DNA from: Escherichia coli
Lineage (GTDB): Bacteria; Pseudomonadota; Gammaproteobacteria; Enterobacterales; Enterobacteriaceae
Strand: one strand, 5' to 3'
Length of the DNA: 64,000 nucleotides
NCBI RefSeq assembly: GCF_030013595.1
Contig: NZ_CP122768.1
The notes beneath the pieces are model-generated. The model did not search any database, was not told where the DNA came from, and saw nothing but the letters and a program-made list of their open reading frames with translations. The position numbers and the translations under genes are program-made. Positions 44,980 through 58,308 of this stretch are shown here, in pieces; the stretch's first letter is position 1; each line of letters opens with the position of its first letter.

Positions 44980-46134
<1,155 letters not shown>

Positions 46135-46144
46135 GTTTCAGCCT

Positions 46145-47682
<1,538 letters not shown>

Positions 47683-47919
47683 TTATTGTTTTATTACCAA
47701 ACGGCAACCTAATCTAATCAGATTGAAAGATTTAAAAGTGTTATTTTGATCGCAAAATGAAAGATAAATATTTTAATTTGAAAGTTTGAATAAAAGGATT
47801 GCGAGGAGAATGAGTTGAGTTATGTAAAGTCCGTATCGGGCAGTGACTACCGCTTCCTTGTGCGGGGCGTGATGCTTTACCATACTTGCCCCTGGTTGAA
47901 TCTGTTAAATGGACCCCTC

Positions 47920-49005
47920 ATGTTCAAGCGTCGTTATGTAACATTGCTTCCCCTTTTTGTGTTGCTTGCCGCCTGTAGCAGCAAGCCAAAACCTACTGAG
48001 ACTGAAACGACCACCGGAACGCCGTCTGGCGGCTTCCTGCTTGAGCCGCAGCACAATGTGATGCAGATGGGCGGTGACTTCGCCAATAACCCGAATGCCC
48101 AGCAGTTCATCGACAAAATGGTGAACAAACACGGTTTCGATCGTCAGCAGTTGCAGGAAATTCTCTCTCAGGCGAAACGTCTGGATTCGGTACTGCGGCT
48201 GATGGATAACCAGGCACCAACCACATCGGTGAAACCGCCATCAGGTCCGAACGGCGCATGGCTGCGTTATCGCAAAAAATTTATTACGCCGGACAACGTG
48301 CAGAATGGTGTGGTTTTCTGGAATCAGTATGAAGATGCGTTGAATCGCGCGTGGCAGGTGTATGGCGTACCGCCGGAAATTATCGTCGGGATTATCGGCG
48401 TTGAAACCCGCTGGGGGCGCGTGATGGGGAAAAACCGTATCCTCGATGCGCTGGCAACGCTGTCATTTAACTACCCACGCCGCGCGGAGTATTTCTCTGG
48501 CGAGCTGGAAACTTTCCTGCTGATGGCGCGCGATGAGCAGGACGATCCGCTCAATCTGAAAGGTTCCTTTGCCGGGGCGATGGGCTACGGACAGTTTATG
48601 CCGTCGTCTTACAAACAATATGCGGTAGATTTCAGCGGCGACGGGCATATCAACCTGTGGGATCCGGTTGATGCGATCGGTAGTGTGGCGAACTATTTCA
48701 AAGCGCACGGCTGGGTGAAAGGTGATCAGGTTGCGGTGATGGCAAACGGTCAGGCTCTAGGCTTGCCAAATGGCTTCAAAACCAAGTACAGCATTTCGCA
48801 GCTTGCCGCGGCAGGTTTAACGCCACAGCAGCCGCTGGGCAACCATCAACAAGCCAGCCTGCTGCGTCTGGATGTCGGTACCGGTTACCAGTACTGGTAC
48901 GGTCTGCCGAACTTCTACACCATCACCCGTTACAACCACAGTACCCATTACGCAATGGCGGTCTGGCAGTTAGGACAAGCCGTGGCGCTGGCGCGCGTGC
49001 AGTAA
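47920..49005 (+). CDS. mltB: Membrane-bound lytic murein transglycosylase B (lipoprotein)
   Basis: Starts MFKRRYVTLLPLFVLLAACSS (lipobox LAAC); the track ORF from 47815 is a 5' over-extension. Confidence 0.93.
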   Translation: MFKRRYVTLLPLFVLLAACSSKPKPTETETTTGTPSGGFLLEPQHNVMQMGGDFANNPNAQQFIDKMVNKHGFDRQQLQEILSQAKRLDSVLRLMDNQAPTTSVKPPSGPNGAWLRYRKKFITPDNVQNGVVFWNQYEDALNRAWQVYGVPPEIIVGIIGVETRWGRVMGKNRILDALATLSFNYPRRAEYFSGELETFLLMARDEQDDPLNLKGSFAGAMGYGQFMPSSYKQYAVDFSGDGHINLWDPVDAIGSVANYFKAHGWVKGDQVAVMANGQALGLPNGFKTKYSISQLAAAGLTPQQPLGNHQQASLLRLDVGTGYQYWYGLPNFYTITRYNHSTHYAMAVWQLGQAVALARVQ

Positions 49006-49149
49006 CTATTTGCAAGAGGGGAGCGTGAGCTTCCCTCTGGCTAATCAGCTTTTTTCTGAATCCTCCTCGTAAAATTGCAACGCCAACACCATCTTCCTGA
49101 CGAAAGTGCTATCTTGTCCGGCATAAATTTTTGACTGACAGAGGTTGTG

Positions 49150-49643
49150 ATGACTGACAGTGAACTGATGCAGTTAAGCGAACAGGTTGGGCAGGCGCTG
49201 AAAGCCCGTGGCGCAACCGTAACAACTGCTGAGTCTTGTACCGGTGGTTGGGTAGCGAAAGTGATTACCGATATTGCCGGCAGTTCCGCCTGGTTTGAAC
49301 GCGGATTTGTCACCTACAGTAACGAAGCGAAAGCGCAAATGATCGGTGTACGCGAAGAGACGCTGGCGCAGCATGGCGCGGTGAGCGAACCTGTCGTGGT
49401 GGAAATGGCGATAGGCGCACTGAAAGCGGCTCGTGCTGATTATGCCGTGTCTATTAGTGGTATCGCCGGGCCGGATGGCGGCAGTGAAGAGAAGCCTGTC
49501 GGCACCGTCTGGTTTGCTTTTGCCACTGCCCGTGGTGAAGGCATTACCCGGCGGGAATGCTTCAGCGGTGACCGTGATGCGGTGCGTCGTCAGGCTACTG
49601 CGTATGCATTGCAGACCTTGTGGCAACAATTTCTACAAAACAC

Positions 49644-49647
<4 letters not shown>
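49150..49647 (+). CDS. pncC: NMN amidohydrolase PncC (CinA C-terminal-domain family)
   Basis: MTDSELMQLSEQVGQALKARGATVTTAESCTGGW...; ATG 49150 preferred over the in-frame GTG at 49147. Confidence 0.9.
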
Positions 49648-50788
<1,141 letters not shown>

Positions 50789-50808
50789 TCGTCTTGTTTG
50801 ATACACAA

Positions 50809-50836
50809 GGGTCGCATCTGCGGCCCTTTTGCTTTT
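50809..50836 (+). terminator. Intrinsic terminator downstream of recA
   Basis: Stem gggtcgc/gcggccc with 4-nt loop followed by ttttgctttttt. Confidence 0.65.
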
Positions 50837-50856
50837 TTAAGTTGTAAGGATATGCC

Positions 50857-51357
50857 ATGACAGAATCAACGTCCCGTCGCCCGGCATATGCTCGCCTGTT
50901 GGATCGTGCGGTACGCATTCTGGCGGTGCGCGATCACAGTGAGCAAGAACTGCGACGTAAACTCGCGGCACCGATTATGGGCAAAAATGGCCCGGAAGAG
51001 ATTGATGCCACGGCAGAAGATTACGAGCGCGTTATTGCCTGGTGCCATGAACATGGCTATCTCGATGACAGCCGATTTGTGGCGCGCTTTATCGCCAGCC
51101 GTAGCCGCAAAGGTTATGGACCTGCGCGTATTCGTCAGGAACTGAATCAGAAAGGTATTTCCCGCGAAGCGACAGAAAAAGCGATGCGTGAATGTGACAT
51201 CGACTGGTGCGCACTGGCGCGCGATCAGGCGACGCGAAAATATGGCGAACCTTTGCCAACTGTCTTTTCAGAAAAAGTTAAGATCCAGCGTTTTCTGCTC
51301 TATCGTGGCTATCTGATGGAAGATATCCAGGATATTTGGCGAAATTTTGCCGACTGA
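50857..51357 (+). CDS. recX: RecA regulator RecX
   Basis: 166-aa [39 protein letters not shown]... Confidence 0.93.
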
Positions 51358-51485
51358 ACGCATACGGGATTTTACTTCCCAGTCAAGAAAACTTATCTTA
51401 TTCCCACTTTTCAGTTACCAGCCGGGCGGTTAACAACACGCAACGGCTGGTAGCGATATTTCGTTAGCTTGATTTCAGGATAATT

Positions 51486-54116
51486 ATGAGCAAGAGCACC
51501 GCTGAGATCCGTCAGGCGTTTCTCGACTTTTTCCATAGTAAGGGACATCAGGTAGTTGCCAGCAGCTCCCTGGTACCCCATAACGACCCAACTTTGTTGT
51601 TTACCAACGCCGGGATGAACCAGTTCAAGGATGTGTTCCTTGGGCTCGACAAGCGTAATTATTCCCGCGCTACCACTTCCCAACGCTGCGTGCGTGCGGG
51701 TGGTAAACACAACGACCTGGAAAACGTTGGTTACACCGCGCGTCATCATACCTTCTTCGAAATGCTGGGCAACTTCAGCTTCGGCGACTATTTCAAACAC
51801 GATGCCATTCAGTTTGCATGGGAACTGCTGACCAGCGAAAAATGGTTTGCCCTGCCGAAAGAGCGTCTGTGGGTTACCGTCTATGAAAGCGACGACGAAG
51901 CCTACGAAATCTGGGAAAAAGAAGTAGGGATCCCGCGCGAACGTATTATTCGCATCGGCGATAACAAAGGTGCGCCATACGCATCTGACAACTTCTGGCA
52001 GATGGGTGACACTGGTCCGTGCGGCCCGTGCACCGAAATCTTCTACGATCACGGCGACCACATTTGGGGTGGCCCTCCGGGAAGTCCGGAAGAAGACGGC
52101 GACCGCTACATTGAGATCTGGAACATCGTCTTCATGCAGTTCAACCGCCAGGCAGATGGCACGATGGAACCGCTGCCGAAGCCGTCTGTAGATACCGGTA
52201 TGGGTCTGGAGCGTATTGCTGCGGTGCTGCAACACGTTAACTCTAACTATGACATCGACCTGTTCCGTACGCTGATCCAGGCGGTAGCGAAAGTCACTGG
52301 CGCGACCGATTTGAGCAACAAATCGCTGCGCGTAATCGCTGACCACATTCGTTCTTGTGCGTTCCTGATCGCGGATGGCGTAATGCCGTCCAATGAAAAC
52401 CGTGGTTATGTACTGCGTCGTATCATTCGTCGCGCAGTGCGTCACGGTAATATGCTCGGCGCGAAAGAAACCTTCTTCTACAAACTGGTTGGTCCGCTGA
52501 TCGACGTTATGGGCTCTGCGGGTGAAGACCTGAAACGCCAGCAGGCGCAGGTTGAGCAGGTGCTGAAGACTGAAGAAGAGCAGTTTGCCCGTACTCTGGA
52601 GCGCGGTCTGGCGCTGCTGGATGAAGAGCTGGCAAAACTTTCTGGTGATACGCTGGATGGTGAAACGGCTTTCCGTCTGTACGACACCTATGGCTTCCCG
52701 GTTGACCTGACGGCTGATGTTTGTCGTGAGCGCAACATCAAAGTTGACGAAGCTGGATTTGAAGCAGCAATGGAAGAGCAGCGTCGTCGTGCGCGCGAAG
52801 CCAGCGGCTTTGGTGCCGATTACAACGCAATGATCCGTGTTGACAGTGCATCTGAATTTAAAGGCTATGACCATCTGGAACTAAACGGCAAAGTGACCGC
52901 GCTGTTTGTTGATGGTAAATCGGTTGATGTCATCAATGCAGGCCAGGAAGCTGTGGTCGTGCTGGATCAAACGCCATTCTATGCGGAATCCGGCGGTCAG
53001 GTTGGTGATAAAGGCGAACTGAAAGGCGCTAACTTCTCCTTTGCGGTGGAAGATACGCAGAAATACGGCCAGGCGATTGGTCACATCGGTAAACTTGCTG
53101 CGGGTTCTCTGAAAGTGGGCGACGCGGTGCAGGCTGATGTTGATGAAGCTCGTCGCGCCCGTATTCGTCTGAATCACTCCGCAACGCACCTGATGCACGC
53201 GGCGCTGCGCCAGGCTCTGGGTACTCATGTATCGCAGAAAGGTTCACTGGTTAACGACAAAGTGCTGCGCTTCGACTTCTCACACAACGAAGCGATGAAG
53301 CCAGAAGAGATTCGTGCGGTCGAAGACCTGGTGAACGCACAGATTCGCCGTAACTTGCCGATTGAAACCAACATCATGGATCTCGAAGCGGCGAAAGCGA
53401 AAGGTGCGATGGCACTGTTCGGCGAGAAGTATGATGAGCGCGTACGCGTGCTGAGCATGGGCGATTTCTCCACCGAGCTGTGTGGCGGTACTCACGCCAG
53501 TCGCACCGGTGATATTGGTCTGTTCCGCATCATCTCTGAATCGGGTACTGCTGCAGGCGTTCGTCGTATCGAAGCGGTAACCGGAGAAGGCGCTATCGCC
53601 ACCGTTCATGCAGACAGCGATCGCTTAAACGAAGTCGCGCATCTGCTGAAAGGCGATAGCAATAATCTGGCTGATAAAGTGCGCTCAGTACTGGAACGTA
53701 CGCGTCAGCTGGAAAAAGAGTTACAACAGCTTAAAGAACAAGCTGCCGCACAGGAGAGCGCAAATCTTTCCAGTAAGGCAATTGATGTTAATGGTGTTAA
53801 GCTGTTGGTTAGCGAGCTTAGCGGTGTTGAGCCGAAAATGTTGCGTACCATGGTTGACGATTTAAAAAATCAGCTGGGGTCGACAATTATCGTGCTGGCA
53901 ACGGTAGTCGAAGGTAAGGTTTCTCTGATTGCAGGCGTATCTAAGGACGTCACAGATCGTGTGAAAGCAGGGGAACTGATTGGTATGGTCGCTCAGCAGG
54001 TGGGCGGCAAGGGTGGTGGACGTCCTGACATGGCGCAAGCCGGTGGTACGGATGCTGCGGCCTTACCTGCAGCGTTAGCCAGTGTGAAAGGCTGGGTCAG
54101 CGCGAAATTGCAATAA
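51486..54116 (+). CDS. alaS: Alanine--tRNA ligase
   Basis: 876-aa [34 protein letters not shown]... with class II aaRS motifs. Confidence 0.97.
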
Positions 54117-54350
54117 TATAAGCGTCAGGCAATGCCGTGGACTCGCTTCACGGCATTCGCATTAACGCTATCGACAACGATAAAGTCAGGTTGAAGTTGT
54201 GTATATCGGCTAAACTTAGGTTTAACAGAATGTAATGCCATGACTGCTTACATGTAATGTGTTTGTCATTGCTTACTTTTTGGCGTTATATGATGGATAA
54301 TGCCGGGATACAGAGAGACCCGACTCTTTTAATCTTTCAAGGAGCAAAGA

Positions 54351-54536
54351 ATGCTGATTCTGACTCGTCGAGTTGGTGAGACTCTCATGATTGGGGATGA
54401 GGTCACCGTGACAGTTTTAGGGGTAAAGGGCAACCAGGTACGTATTGGCGTAAATGCCCCGAAGGAAGTTTCTGTTCACCGTGAAGAGATCTACCAGCGT
54501 ATCCAGGCTGAAAAATCCCAGCAGTCCAGTTACTAA
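54351..54536 (+). CDS. csrA: Carbon storage regulator CsrA
   Basis: 61-aa [51 protein letters not shown]. Confidence 0.97.
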
Positions 54537-54761
54537 TCTTTCCGCGTCTCATCTTTATCGGTGAGACGCACCCTCAAAATTTCTTCTTCACTCCATTGTC
54601 TTTTCGCTTTACTCCCGTTCATTCAACTTAAGTTTCCATTTTTTTGCATTACTGCTATCTGACAGACCTCCGTTTTTTTGTTGATAAAACACTCTTTTTG
54701 ACGTTTTTACAGACTAATTGAGCGTGAAGTGTGCAAACGATAAAAGTGTGGGAAAAATTGT

Positions 54762-54789
54762 TTGACTTATAAGTCTCAGAAAGTAATAT
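54762..54789 (+). promoter_or_regulatory. Candidate promoter of the tRNA-Ser/tRNA-Arg cluster (-35 ttgact, 16-bp spacer, -10 taatat, GC-rich discriminator)
   Basis: Hexamers followed by gtgcgcc, typical of stringently controlled stable-RNA promoters. Confidence 0.45.
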
Positions 54790-54851
54790 GTGCGCCACGC
54801 AGCGACGATGAGCGATAAACAAGTTCTTCGAAGCACTCGTAAGAGGCGTGT

Positions 54852-54944
54852 GGTGAGGTGGCCGAGAGGCTGAAGGCGCTCCCCTGCTAAGGGAGTATGC
54901 GGTCAAAAGCTGCATCCGGGGTTCGAATCCCCGCCTCACCGCCA
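54852..54944 (+). tRNA. serV: tRNA-Ser (anticodon GCU), 93 nt including CCA
   Basis: Cloverleaf with long variable arm; anticodon loop cuGCUaa; ends ...ccgcctcaccgcca. Confidence 0.93.
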
Positions 54945-54947
54945 TTT

Positions 54948-55024
54948 GCATCCGTAGCTCAGCTGGATAGAGTACTCGGCTACGAACCGAGCGGTCGGAG
55001 GTTCGAATCCTCCCGGATGCACCA
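54948..55024 (+). tRNA. tRNA-Arg (anticodon ACG), 77 nt, copy 1
   Basis: gcatccgtagctcagctggatagagtactcggctACGaaccgagcggtcggaggttcgaatcctcccggatgcacca; 3 nt after tRNA-Ser. Confidence 0.93.
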
Positions 55025-55139
55025 TATTCTACGTACTTTCAGCGATGAAGGTATAGAAGAGGTGGCGGTAATAACCGCAGGCACCAGGGAGGATAACGTT
55101 GCTTTAGCAACGGCCCGAAGGGCGAGCCGCAAGGCGAGT

Positions 55140-55158
55140 AATCCTCCCGGATGCACCA
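55140..55158 (+). other. 19-nt 3'-terminal fragment of tRNA-Arg (aatcctcccggatgcacca) in the long spacer
   Basis: Exact match to the last 19 nt of the intact copies; upstream sequence diverges. Confidence 0.7.
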
Positions 55159-55222
55159 TCTCTTACTTGATACGGCTTTAGTAGCGGTATCAAAAAATCT
55201 GCAGTAAAGTAAGTTTCCCGAT

Positions 55223-55299
55223 GCATCCGTAGCTCAGCTGGATAGAGTACTCGGCTACGAACCGAGCGGTCGGAGGTTCGAATCCTCCCGGATGCACCA
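55223..55299 (+). tRNA. tRNA-Arg (anticodon ACG), 77 nt, copy 2
   Basis: Identical to copy 1. Confidence 0.93.
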
Positions 55300-55401
55300 T
55301 ATTCTCCGTAATCATCAGTGATGATGGTTAAGATGGATTTTCTTATTTGATATGGCTTTAGTAGCGGTATCAATATCAGCAGTAAAATAAGTTTTCCCGA
55401 T

Positions 55402-55478
55402 GCATCCGTAGCTCAGCTGGATAGAGTACTCGGCTACGAACCGAGCGGTCGGAGGTTCGAATCCTCCCGGATGCACCA
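55402..55478 (+). tRNA. tRNA-Arg (anticodon ACG), 77 nt, copy 3
   Basis: Identical to copy 1. Confidence 0.93.
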
Positions 55479-55688
55479 TATTCTCCGTAATCTTCAGCAA
55501 TGAAGGTATCGAAGAGGTAGCGGTTCTAACCGCAGGCACCATCTTCTCCAAAAAATTTCCTTCAAAAATATCTCATTTCTAAATAACTACTTTATCCATT
55601 TCCTGAATTTTCTTCTCCTTCGCCATCAGCGACAAAATCAAGCAATTACGCTAAAGTAGCGTCATATTTTTCGACTTGCGAGAAGACC

Positions 55689-56255
55689 ATGTACGAGCGT
55701 TATGCAGGTTTAATTTTTGATATGGATGGCACAATCCTGGATACGGAGCCTACGCACCGTAAAGCGTGGCGCGAAGTATTAGGGCACTACGGTCTTCAGT
55801 ACGATGTTCAGGCAATGATTGCGCTTAATGGCTCGCCCACCTGGCGTATTGCTCAGGCGATTATTGAGCTGAATCAGGCCGATCTCGACCCGCATGCGTT
55901 AGCGCGTGAAAAAACAGAAGCAGTAAGAAGTATGCTGCTGGATAGTGTCGAGCCGCTTCCTCTTGTTGAAGTGGTGAAAAGCTGGCATGGTCGTCGCCCA
56001 ATGGCTGTAGGAACGGGGAGTGAAAGCGCCATCGCTGAGGCATTGCTGGCGCACCTGGGATTACGCCGTTATTTTGACGCCGTCGTCGCTGCTGATCACG
56101 TCAAACACCATAAACCCGCGCCAGACACATTTTTGTTGTGCGCGCAGCGTATGGGCGTGCAACCGACACAGTGTGTGGTCTTTGAAGATGCCGATTTCGG
56201 TATTCAGGCGGCCCGTGCAGCAGGCATGGACGCTGTGGATGTTCGCTTGCTGTGA
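55689..56255 (+). CDS. yqaB: HAD-superfamily sugar phosphatase YqaB
   Basis: 188-aa ORF with DMDGT HAD motif I (…LIFDMDGTILDTEP…). Confidence 0.92.
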   Translation: MYERYAGLIFDMDGTILDTEPTHRKAWREVLGHYGLQYDVQAMIALNGSPTWRIAQAIIELNQADLDPHALAREKTEAVRSMLLDSVEPLPLVEVVKSWHGRRPMAVGTGSESAIAEALLAHLGLRRYFDAVVAADHVKHHKPAPDTFLLCAQRMGVQPTQCVVFEDADFGIQAARAAGMDAVDVRLL

Positions 56256-56665
56256 GTGAAGCGTTATCGCTTTTCTCGTTGTTTGCCAGTAGTTTTCTCA
56301 GCGCTACACTATTACCCGGCAACTCCGAAGTCGTGCTGGTGGCAATGTTGCTTTCCGGGATCAGTCATCCCTGGGTTTTAGTTTTAACAGCAACAATGGG
56401 TAATAGCCTTGGAGGGTTAACTAACGTTATCCTTGGGCGTTTCTTTCCATTGCGTAAAACATCGCGCTGGCAAGAGAAAGCTACCGGCTGGCTGAAACGC
56501 TATGGTGCAGTCACGCTATTATTAAGCTGGATGCCCGTGGTTGGCGATTTACTGTGTCTGTTAGCGGGATGGATGCGCATCTCCTGGGGGCCGGTAATCT
56601 TTTTTTGTGCCTTGGTAAAGCGTTACGCTATGTTGCAGTTGCAGCAGCGACCGTTCAGGGCATGA
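56252..56665 (+). CDS. yqaA: Small DedA/YqaA-family inner membrane protein; C-terminus altered by an apparent -1 frameshift in a T7 tract
   Basis: GTG start overlapping the yqaB stop; after ...WGPVIFF the frame ends CALVKRYAMLQLQQRPFRA*; one extra T in the run at 56600-56606 would give a hydrophobic LCLGKALRYVAVAAATVQGMMWWH* tail and a 142-aa product. Confidence 0.8.
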   Translation: MSEALSLFSLFASSFLSATLLPGNSEVVLVAMLLSGISHPWVLVLTATMGNSLGGLTNVILGRFFPLRKTSRWQEKATGWLKRYGAVTLLLSWMPVVGDLLCLLAGWMRISWGPVIFFCALVKRYAMLQLQQRPFRA

Positions 56666-56724
56666 TGTGGTGGCACTAATTGTAGGCCTGCACATATGGT
56701 CACCATTACAGTTATGCTAATTAA

Positions 56725-58308
<1,584 letters not shown>

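Follow-up and report, generated by a model that had tools for sequence, protein, structure and literature searches.

The locus is the Escherichia coli serV-argV(YZQ) tRNA operon in a rare three-copy allele, and the 19-nucleotide (nt) fragment between its first two tRNA-Arg genes is, by sequence comparison, the tail of a 72-nt arg-operon tRNA-linked repeat (TLR) at positions 55087 to 55158. We put the probability of the whole explanation, in which unequal recombination would have produced the three-copy state, at about 0.88. Everything at this locus, that is, the operon, the TLR, and the copy-number polymorphism, has already been described. The copy-number difference is a routine polymorphism, the element and the operon have long been known, and the case carries little weight as a discovery.

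In the 64,000-nt stretch of DNA analyzed (the window), ARAGORN and the Rfam tRNA model concordantly called one tRNA-Ser(GCU) gene and three tRNA-Arg(ACG) genes, all on the plus strand. The tRNA-Ser gene (54852 to 54944; 56.8 bits in Rfam), a serV homologue that aligns with serV of K-12, is the first gene of the operon. It is followed by tRNA-Arg copy 1 in the argV position (54948 to 55024; 67.1 bits), copy 2 (55223 to 55299), and copy 3, the last gene of the array (55402 to 55478). The tool calls and the sequence confirmed the statement of a first-pass annotation of this DNA that these three genes are identical and 77 nt long, and that they are separated by spacers of 198 bp (spacer 1, 55025 to 55222) and 102 bp (spacer 2, 55300 to 55401). 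That annotation also called the spacers alternating; both lengths exist, but the pattern was overstated because the window has only two spacers. The array is bounded by csrA and by yqaB, whose start codon is at 55689, and this arrangement of a tRNA-Ser(GCU) gene and then tandem identical tRNA-Arg(ACG) genes in the csrA-yqaB interval is that of the serV-argVYZQ operon. The annotated order in K-12 is csrA-serV-argV-argY-argZ-argQ-yqaB, with spacers of 198, 62, and 198 bp. The statement in the first-pass annotation that K-12 has four copies was thus borne out, and four is also the modal number in E. coli; the three copies in the window are within natural variation.

Over the 12 kb around the array (46000 to 58000 of the window), the DNA is colinear with complete E. 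coli genomes, with identities up to 99.2%. Because this best value, among 5,426 complete genomes, is only 99.2%, the source strain of the window is poorly represented in that set, with no close representative, and it may belong to a less sampled lineage of E. coli or Shigella. A promoter-like site on the plus strand (TTGACT, 16 nt, TAATAT; 54762 to 54789), about 63 nt upstream of the tRNA-Ser gene, is a candidate operon promoter by its position only, as this single match in a consensus scan is at chance level for the region. The terminator scan likewise gave a single, chance-level match, a weak terminator-like hairpin at 55648 to 55662. Calls on the minus strand were rejected as mirror-image artefacts of real tRNA genes: an ARAGORN tRNA-Arg(TCG) at 54968 to 55039, antisense to copy 1, and, far under their thresholds, Rfam matches to Plastid-psbl-rps4 antisense to the tRNA-Ser gene and to Plastid-ycf2 antisense to all three Arg genes (33.4 bits versus a threshold of 65.7).

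The sequence AATCCTCCCGGATGCACCA, the last 19 nt of tRNA-Arg, occurs exactly at four places in the window: once in each tRNA-Arg gene and once, on the plus strand, at 55140 to 55158. The latter copy, which had been noticed in the first pass, matches 55006 to 55024 at 19/19 positions; dinucleotide-preserving shuffles gave a mean of only 0.01 matches even with up to 3 mismatches allowed. It consists of the end of the T-loop, the 3' strand of the T-stem, the 3' strand of the acceptor stem, and ACCA. The hallmark of TLRs is an 18- to 19-bp 3' end that is identical to the upstream tRNA or rRNA gene (PMC8144298). The element that ends in the 19-mer begins 62 nt 3' of copy 1 and ends 64 nt 5' of copy 2, in the same orientation. 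Its core, GCAACGRCCCGAAGGGYGA, which was found once in the window, is shared along with the flanking hairpins with the tyrT repeats, and the core is also present in Lys-, Pro-, Glu-, and 5S-linked elements of other species. When the tyrT region was compared directly, it had the same core but a tail equal to the 3' end of tRNA-Tyr in place of tRNA-Arg. The element, exact 19-mer included, recurs in both 198-bp spacers of K-12, where argQ is also followed by a degenerate copy (18/19). It is the exact, host-matched 19-mer, the homology to RtT (below), and the core shared with tyrT that identify the 19-nt fragment as a TLR tail. Like other E. coli TLRs, the window element directly follows a tRNA gene, has a host-identical last 19 bp, and contains the shared core, and its position is that of the TLRs in the argV-argY and argZ-argQ spacers of K-12. 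Nothing essential differs, except that the window strain has one arg-operon TLR and K-12 has three (two intact, one degenerate).

The tyrT operon carries the RtT RNA (rttR), reportedly the subject of a 1991 study by Bosl and Kersten. The Rfam RtT model (RF00391) matched the window at 55048 to 55158 with 29.4 bits (full model), and a narrower search extended the match to 55022 to 55158 with 33.4 bits (E = 4e-5; truncated match). The alignment spans GAUAACGUUGC...GGCCCGAAGGGCGAG...CGAGUAAUCC, laid out as GAUAACGUUGC, a loop, GCAACGGCCCGAAGGGCGAG, a hairpin, and CGAGUAAUCC, and then the tRNA end. Both scores are below the curated gathering score of 45 bits. As controls, the four tyrT-operon repeats of K-12 scored 133 to 137 bits, and its arg-spacer elements scored 29 to 31 bits. 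Because the homology is clear but the score is under the gathering threshold, we rejected membership in the Rfam RtT family and classed the element as a TLR. The homology covers the 3' two-thirds of RtT: the hairpin AACGTTGC...GCAACG, then GGCCCGAAGGGCGAG, a third hairpin, GAGTAATCC, and the end of the host tRNA; in both, the sequence of the 5' arm complements the strand copied from the T-stem. The arg element differs from the tyrT repeats in being a short form, without the domain of about 40 nt that bears the T-loop-like motif GGTTCGA, and in having the tail of tRNA-Arg rather than tRNA-Tyr. Arg-operon TLRs have been missed by annotators because they fall under the Rfam RtT threshold; being unannotated, their tRNA-end tails can therefore be mistaken for integration scars.

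Egan and Landy first observed TLRs in 1978, and the catalogue of Rudd from 1999 listed 22 of them at ten K-12 loci, according to the account of these studies in PMC8144298, the 2021 paper that uses the family name tRNA-linked repeats. The arg spacers are not treated in a mobilome preprint or in a paper on tRNA polyadenylation, though rttR or the arg genes are named in them, and the term RtT is no longer present in PMC10542128.

The full-length 198-bp spacer is made of three parts, all on the plus strand: module a, which is the 3' trailer of one tRNA, then the TLR, and then module b, which is the 5' leader of the tRNA that comes next. Module a (55025 to 55086; delimited by sequence, repeat family D3, and folding) has a conserved hairpin followed by a degenerate minihelix, GGTGGCGGTAATAACCGCAGGCACCA, that is like a tRNA 3' end. 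It was present in every 198-bp spacer and in every 280- or 210-nt trailer of the 15 arrays that we compared. The body of the TLR (55087 to 55139; supported by the Rfam RtT match, the core, the fold, and pair counts) consists of the 5' arm GGGAGGAT and three small hairpins, which include the conserved GCAACGGCCCGAAGGGCGA; the 19-nt tail follows. Module b (55159 to 55222; repeat family D5) makes up the whole of the 62- to 64-bp spacers of other strains. The 102-bp spacer of the window has no TLR: it joins a divergent, shortened trailer that retains the hairpin (a', 55300 to 55340) to module b (55341 to 55401), and strains AR_0114, ECA64, and 144 have 102-bp spacers with the identical sequence.

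After copy 3, the array decomposition gave a terminal module a ending in GCAGGCACCA (55479 to 55541), a junction at 55541/55542, and the rest of the trailer (55542 to 55688, from the sequence, the decomposition, and the terminator scan), which runs to the yqaB start codon. The 70-bp TLR that K-12 and most of the sampled strains have at this place is missing. The first-pass annotation had pointed to a degenerate, tRNA-related segment here, and such a segment exists (55523 to 55549; 67% identical to a tRNA 3' end plus trailer; repeat family D2). It is the end of module a (...GCGGTTCTAACCGCAGGCACCA) fused directly to TCTTCTCC, the sequence that follows TLR tails in other strains, and the same pseudo-3' end is found in spacer 1 at 55066 to 55086, just 5' of the TLR. 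The segment is therefore best read, from these matches, as the junction where the terminal TLR is missing and not as a further tRNA fragment.

About 10 nt 3' of each tRNA-Arg gene there is a hairpin whose pairing is preserved by compensatory changes, with CATCAGTGATGATG in the 102-bp spacer (55309 to 55329) versus CTTCAGCAATGAAG elsewhere (55488 to 55508 and 55035 to 55053). Because the changes keep the pairing, they hint that this trailer hairpin may be under structural constraint.

The 72-nt element had a predicted minimum free energy of −33.6 kcal/mol with a z-score of −3.9, and 0 of 200 shuffled sequences folded as well. In the predicted fold, an 8-bp closing stem of GGGAGGAU with AUCCUCCC, the latter being the copied T-stem strand, surrounds the three small hairpins and leaves GGAUGCACCA as a 3' extension. 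Pairing of the 5' arm GGGAGGAT with the copied strand ATCCTCCC would give the three hairpins a cloverleaf-like closure, and the acceptor strand and ACCA, predicted to be unpaired, would form a tRNA-like 3' end. When module a was folded with the element, an upstream GCACC was predicted to pair with part of the acceptor strand, giving a 13-pair helix with two interruptions that, with its ACCA overhang, resembles a tRNA minihelix.

To evaluate the fold, we aligned 26 Arg- and Lys-linked TLRs of the short form. Standard pairs occupied 90% of the cells versus 27% to 49% when the partners were slid by 1 to 3 columns, a comparison in which the structure is favored over the slid controls by having been derived from one of the aligned sequences. 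Two pairs show compensatory changes: in the closing stem, pair 12-75 is GC in the Arg elements and UA in the Lys elements, and in hairpin 3, pair 52-61 is GC, CG, or AU. The core hairpins are nearly invariant and so speak neither for nor against the fold. Complementarity between the arm and the tail specific to each class was likewise seen in the Tyr, Lys, Pro, and 5S classes; GGGGAAGGAT and ATCCTTCCCC are one such pair, and GGCAGTT and AACTGCC are another. A test based on the longest helix between arm and tail across the host classes did not discriminate, because ATCCT is common to the tails and G-U was accepted as a pair, and it was replaced by the column-wise pair counts. These data show a predicted fold with some covariation.

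To define the breadth of the family, we searched for the core GCAACGRCCCGAAGGGYGA in one genome of each species. The 168 core matches that we analyzed came from at least 120 scanned loci, the window, and two K-12 loci. Among those listed, 94 of the 168 had a tail whose 14 nt exactly matched the 3' end of a flanking tRNA gene on the same strand. The host tRNAs were Tyr(GTA) (40), Lys(TTT) (27), Arg(ACG) (21), Pro(TGG or CGG) (6), and Glu(TTC) (2), with two loci counted under two tRNAs. A further 12 of the listed matches follow a 5S gene and end in ...AACTGCCAGGCAT, the 3' end of 5S rRNA; judged by position and tail, they correspond to the published small RNAs rrA, rrB, and rrF. At these 12 loci, one of which is in E. 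coli, the arm GGCAGTT pairs with the tail AACTGCCAGGCAT. Tandem runs of two to four TLR units were found at tyrT, at tRNA-Lys in Klebsiella and Pantoea, and at tRNA-Glu.

Looser versions of the core were found by tRNA-Ser(TGA) in Photobacterium and by tRNA-Arg(CCG) in Marinobacterium and Amphritea. Outside the Enterobacterales, cores occurred in these three genera and in Gilliamella and Zophobihabitans, where the hosts were tRNA-Arg(CCG), tRNA-Ser(TGA), tRNA-Pro(TGG), and tRNA-Lys; some of these elements have a decayed tail and a 5' arm that continues to match the true end of the tRNA. A handful of matches in Actinobacteria, Rhizobiaceae, and Clostridia were judged to be chance. Long-form TLRs (Tyr, Pro, and long Lys) have an internal piece equal to the 5' strand of the host T-stem plus the T-loop (for example, AAGGTTCGA in Tyr and GCAGGTTCGA in Lys), which is missing from the arg element. 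Because of this match, the long form looks like the 3' third of a tRNA into whose T-loop the conserved core had been inserted.

Of the 5,426 complete E. coli genomes, 5,425 carried the 77-nt tRNA-Arg(ACG) gene, which occurred 21,501 times in total; the mean was 3.96 copies per genome, the median was 4, and the range was 1 to 9. Among 60 genomes sampled at even spacing, 52 had four copies, four had three, two had five, one had six, and one had two. Two genomes were unusual. In E. coli IH5 (NZ_CP168949.1), the array ends after one truncated tRNA-Arg of 74 nt and is directly adjoined by a partial pdeC, with soxS and soxR next in order, which suggests a chromosomal rearrangement with its breakpoint inside the array. 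The laboratory strain E. coli XL10-Gold (NZ_CP081008.1) has six tRNA-Arg(ACG) matches, and at one place a "hypothetical protein" is annotated over the repeat.

We fetched 14 arrays and decomposed them, together with that of the window, by script. The spacers had three states: 198 bp (a, TLR, and b), 102 bp (a' and b), and 62 to 64 bp (b only). The trailers also had three states: 280 nt (a and TLR), 210 nt (a only), and 147 nt (neither). The 62- to 64-bp spacers start with TCTCTTAC right after the CCA of the tRNA, as module b does after the TLR tail, and the 147-nt trailers start with TCTTCTCC right after the CCA. The short forms therefore differ from the long forms by the interval from the tRNA 3' end to the TLR tail. 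The 70 bp by which the 210-nt and 280-nt trailers differ lie between two GCACCA repeats. In all 15 arrays, the junctions coincide exactly with the tRNA-end/TLR-tail repeats or with the GCACCA repeats. The fragment is largely what the first-pass annotation had allowed it might be, a fixed component of the spacer that is identical in K-12; however, in some lineages, such as ST131, the spacers between the tRNA genes have no TLR.

The array of the window has a 198-bp spacer, a 102-bp spacer, and a trailer of 210 nt. Base for base, these match the first spacer, the third spacer, and the trailer, respectively, of the array in strain ECA64 (NZ_OZ392456.1), which has four copies and spacers of 198, 198, and 102 bp. 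The window is the ECA64 allele minus one 275-bp tRNA-plus-spacer unit, the outcome expected of unequal recombination between the identical 77-bp genes; the first-pass proposal that such recombination underlies the copy-number difference is supported to this extent. The extra spacer of ECA64 differs from spacer 1 at many positions and so is not a fresh duplicate, which makes loss from four copies the simpler direction. Most simply, then, the allele would be an ECA64-type four-copy array that lost its second tRNA-plus-spacer unit and that is also missing the terminal TLR. The opposite direction, with a unit gained by a three-copy array and with TLRs gained rather than lost, could also be the case. 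As a mechanism, the identical 77-bp genes and the 19-bp tRNA-end repeats would be substrates for unequal or slipped recombination, by which an array would gain or lose complete 275-bp units and would lose TLRs precisely; exchanges at repeats of 77, 19, and 6 bp would thereby generate the array alleles. Loss of the tyrT/tyrV su3 duplication is the classical case of unequal recombination in tandem tRNA genes. It too involves identical tandem tRNA genes, repeat-bearing spacers, and whole units gained or lost, but in another operon, and the evidence for the arg operon is comparative (alleles of two to six copies, range 1 to 9), not experimental.

Could the three-copy state be an assembly artefact, the true genome having four or more copies, for example through collapse of an exact duplicate of unit 1? 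Arrays of identical 77-bp genes with a 275-bp period do collapse easily in short-read assemblies. Yet eleven complete genomes from different sources are colinear over the whole 1-kb query, at 98.2% to 99.6% identity, with exactly the layout of the window, which argues against collapse, and further three-copy alleles exist in H10407, G8, VL40, and ETEC6333. Moreover, the extra unit of the matching four-copy allele carries a spacer with many differences from spacer 1, so an assembler would keep rather than collapse it. We consider an artefact very unlikely. We give even less credence, close to none, to the suggestion made in the first pass that the 19-nt copy is an attL/attR-type footprint of an element that an integrase inserted into the 3' end of tRNA-Arg and that later decayed or was excised. 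Integrases that target tRNA genes typically leave direct repeats of the tRNA 3' end, here of about 19 nt as in the att duplications of islands and P4-like elements, and TLRs are polymorphic for presence or absence with junctions exactly at the 19-bp repeats. However, the segment concerned (module a plus TLR) is only 134 bp long and has no coding capacity, and the repeats flank 115 bp of conserved, noncoding operon sequence. Att duplications flank an integrase or foreign genes, and neither these nor an island was found between csrA and yqaB in the window, K-12, or the fetched arrays; csrA and yqaB are the neighbors in all sampled E. coli. The first-pass remark that no island or integrase is present was correct. 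Furthermore, the same core follows at least seven tRNA species as well as 5S rRNA, with tail and 5' arm matched to each host, so an integrase would need a different site specificity for each host gene. The repeat is part of a conserved, structured element that belongs to a recognized chromosomal repeat family and is conserved in K-12, and we rejected the integrase or island scar on these grounds.

A different question is whether TLRs are, or once were, mobile: small nonautonomous elements that target the 3' ends of stable RNA genes and copy host sequence, in which case the 198-bp spacers would be insertions and not the ancestral state. A single conserved core beside many stable RNA genes with host-matched arms would fit this, as would the tandem runs of two to four units and the GCACCA on both sides of the 70-bp trailer element. 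But neither an enzyme nor a mechanism is known, recombination between the 19-bp or 6-bp repeats accounts for the same junctions through precise loss, gene conversion with the adjacent gene could maintain host-matched tails, and among the matches listed no core lay away from a stable RNA gene except the chance matches in unrelated phyla. Mobility of this kind seems to us highly improbable. We allow a slim chance to a broader version, that TLRs are small elements that spread among stable RNA 3' ends (tRNA-Tyr, -Lys, -Arg, -Pro, -Glu, and -Ser and 5S rRNA) across the Gammaproteobacteria, adopting the end and the arm of each host, and that the array records ongoing gain and loss. Under it, the covariation of arm and tail would also imply a selected, tRNA-like RNA function, and the 198-bp versus 62- to 64-bp spacers and the 280-, 210-, and 147-nt trailers would partly record gains.

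In the operon, the TLR would be cotranscribed with the tRNAs and, since it presents the same 3' structure as a tRNA, could be released by the nucleases that mature tRNAs (RNase E, RNase P, and 3' exonucleases), by analogy with rtT RNA and RrB. Discrete processed RNA has been shown only for rtT and RrA/B/F (PMC8144298). For RrB, the 3' end maps 3 nt beyond its repeat, and processing by RNase E has been proposed (PMC8144298). The rrA, rrB, and rrF elements share with the arg element the core, a tail duplicating the 3' end of the stable RNA that precedes it, and a 5' arm that pairs with this tail; they differ in that they follow 5S rRNA, are located between dual terminators, and have been shown to bind both Hfq and CsrA in vitro (PMC8144298). 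The TLRs of tRNA operons scored <0.01 with a predictor of CsrA binding (PMC8144298).

Engineered strains with one or eight copies of the argVYZQ genes had changed levels of tRNA-Arg2 and changed TadA-dependent RNA editing (PMC13170351). Since the dosage of tRNA-Arg(ACG) has measurable effects, small physiological differences could exist among natural alleles, whose copy numbers run from two to six or more, and by analogy with the engineered strains, these dosage variants may not be entirely neutral.
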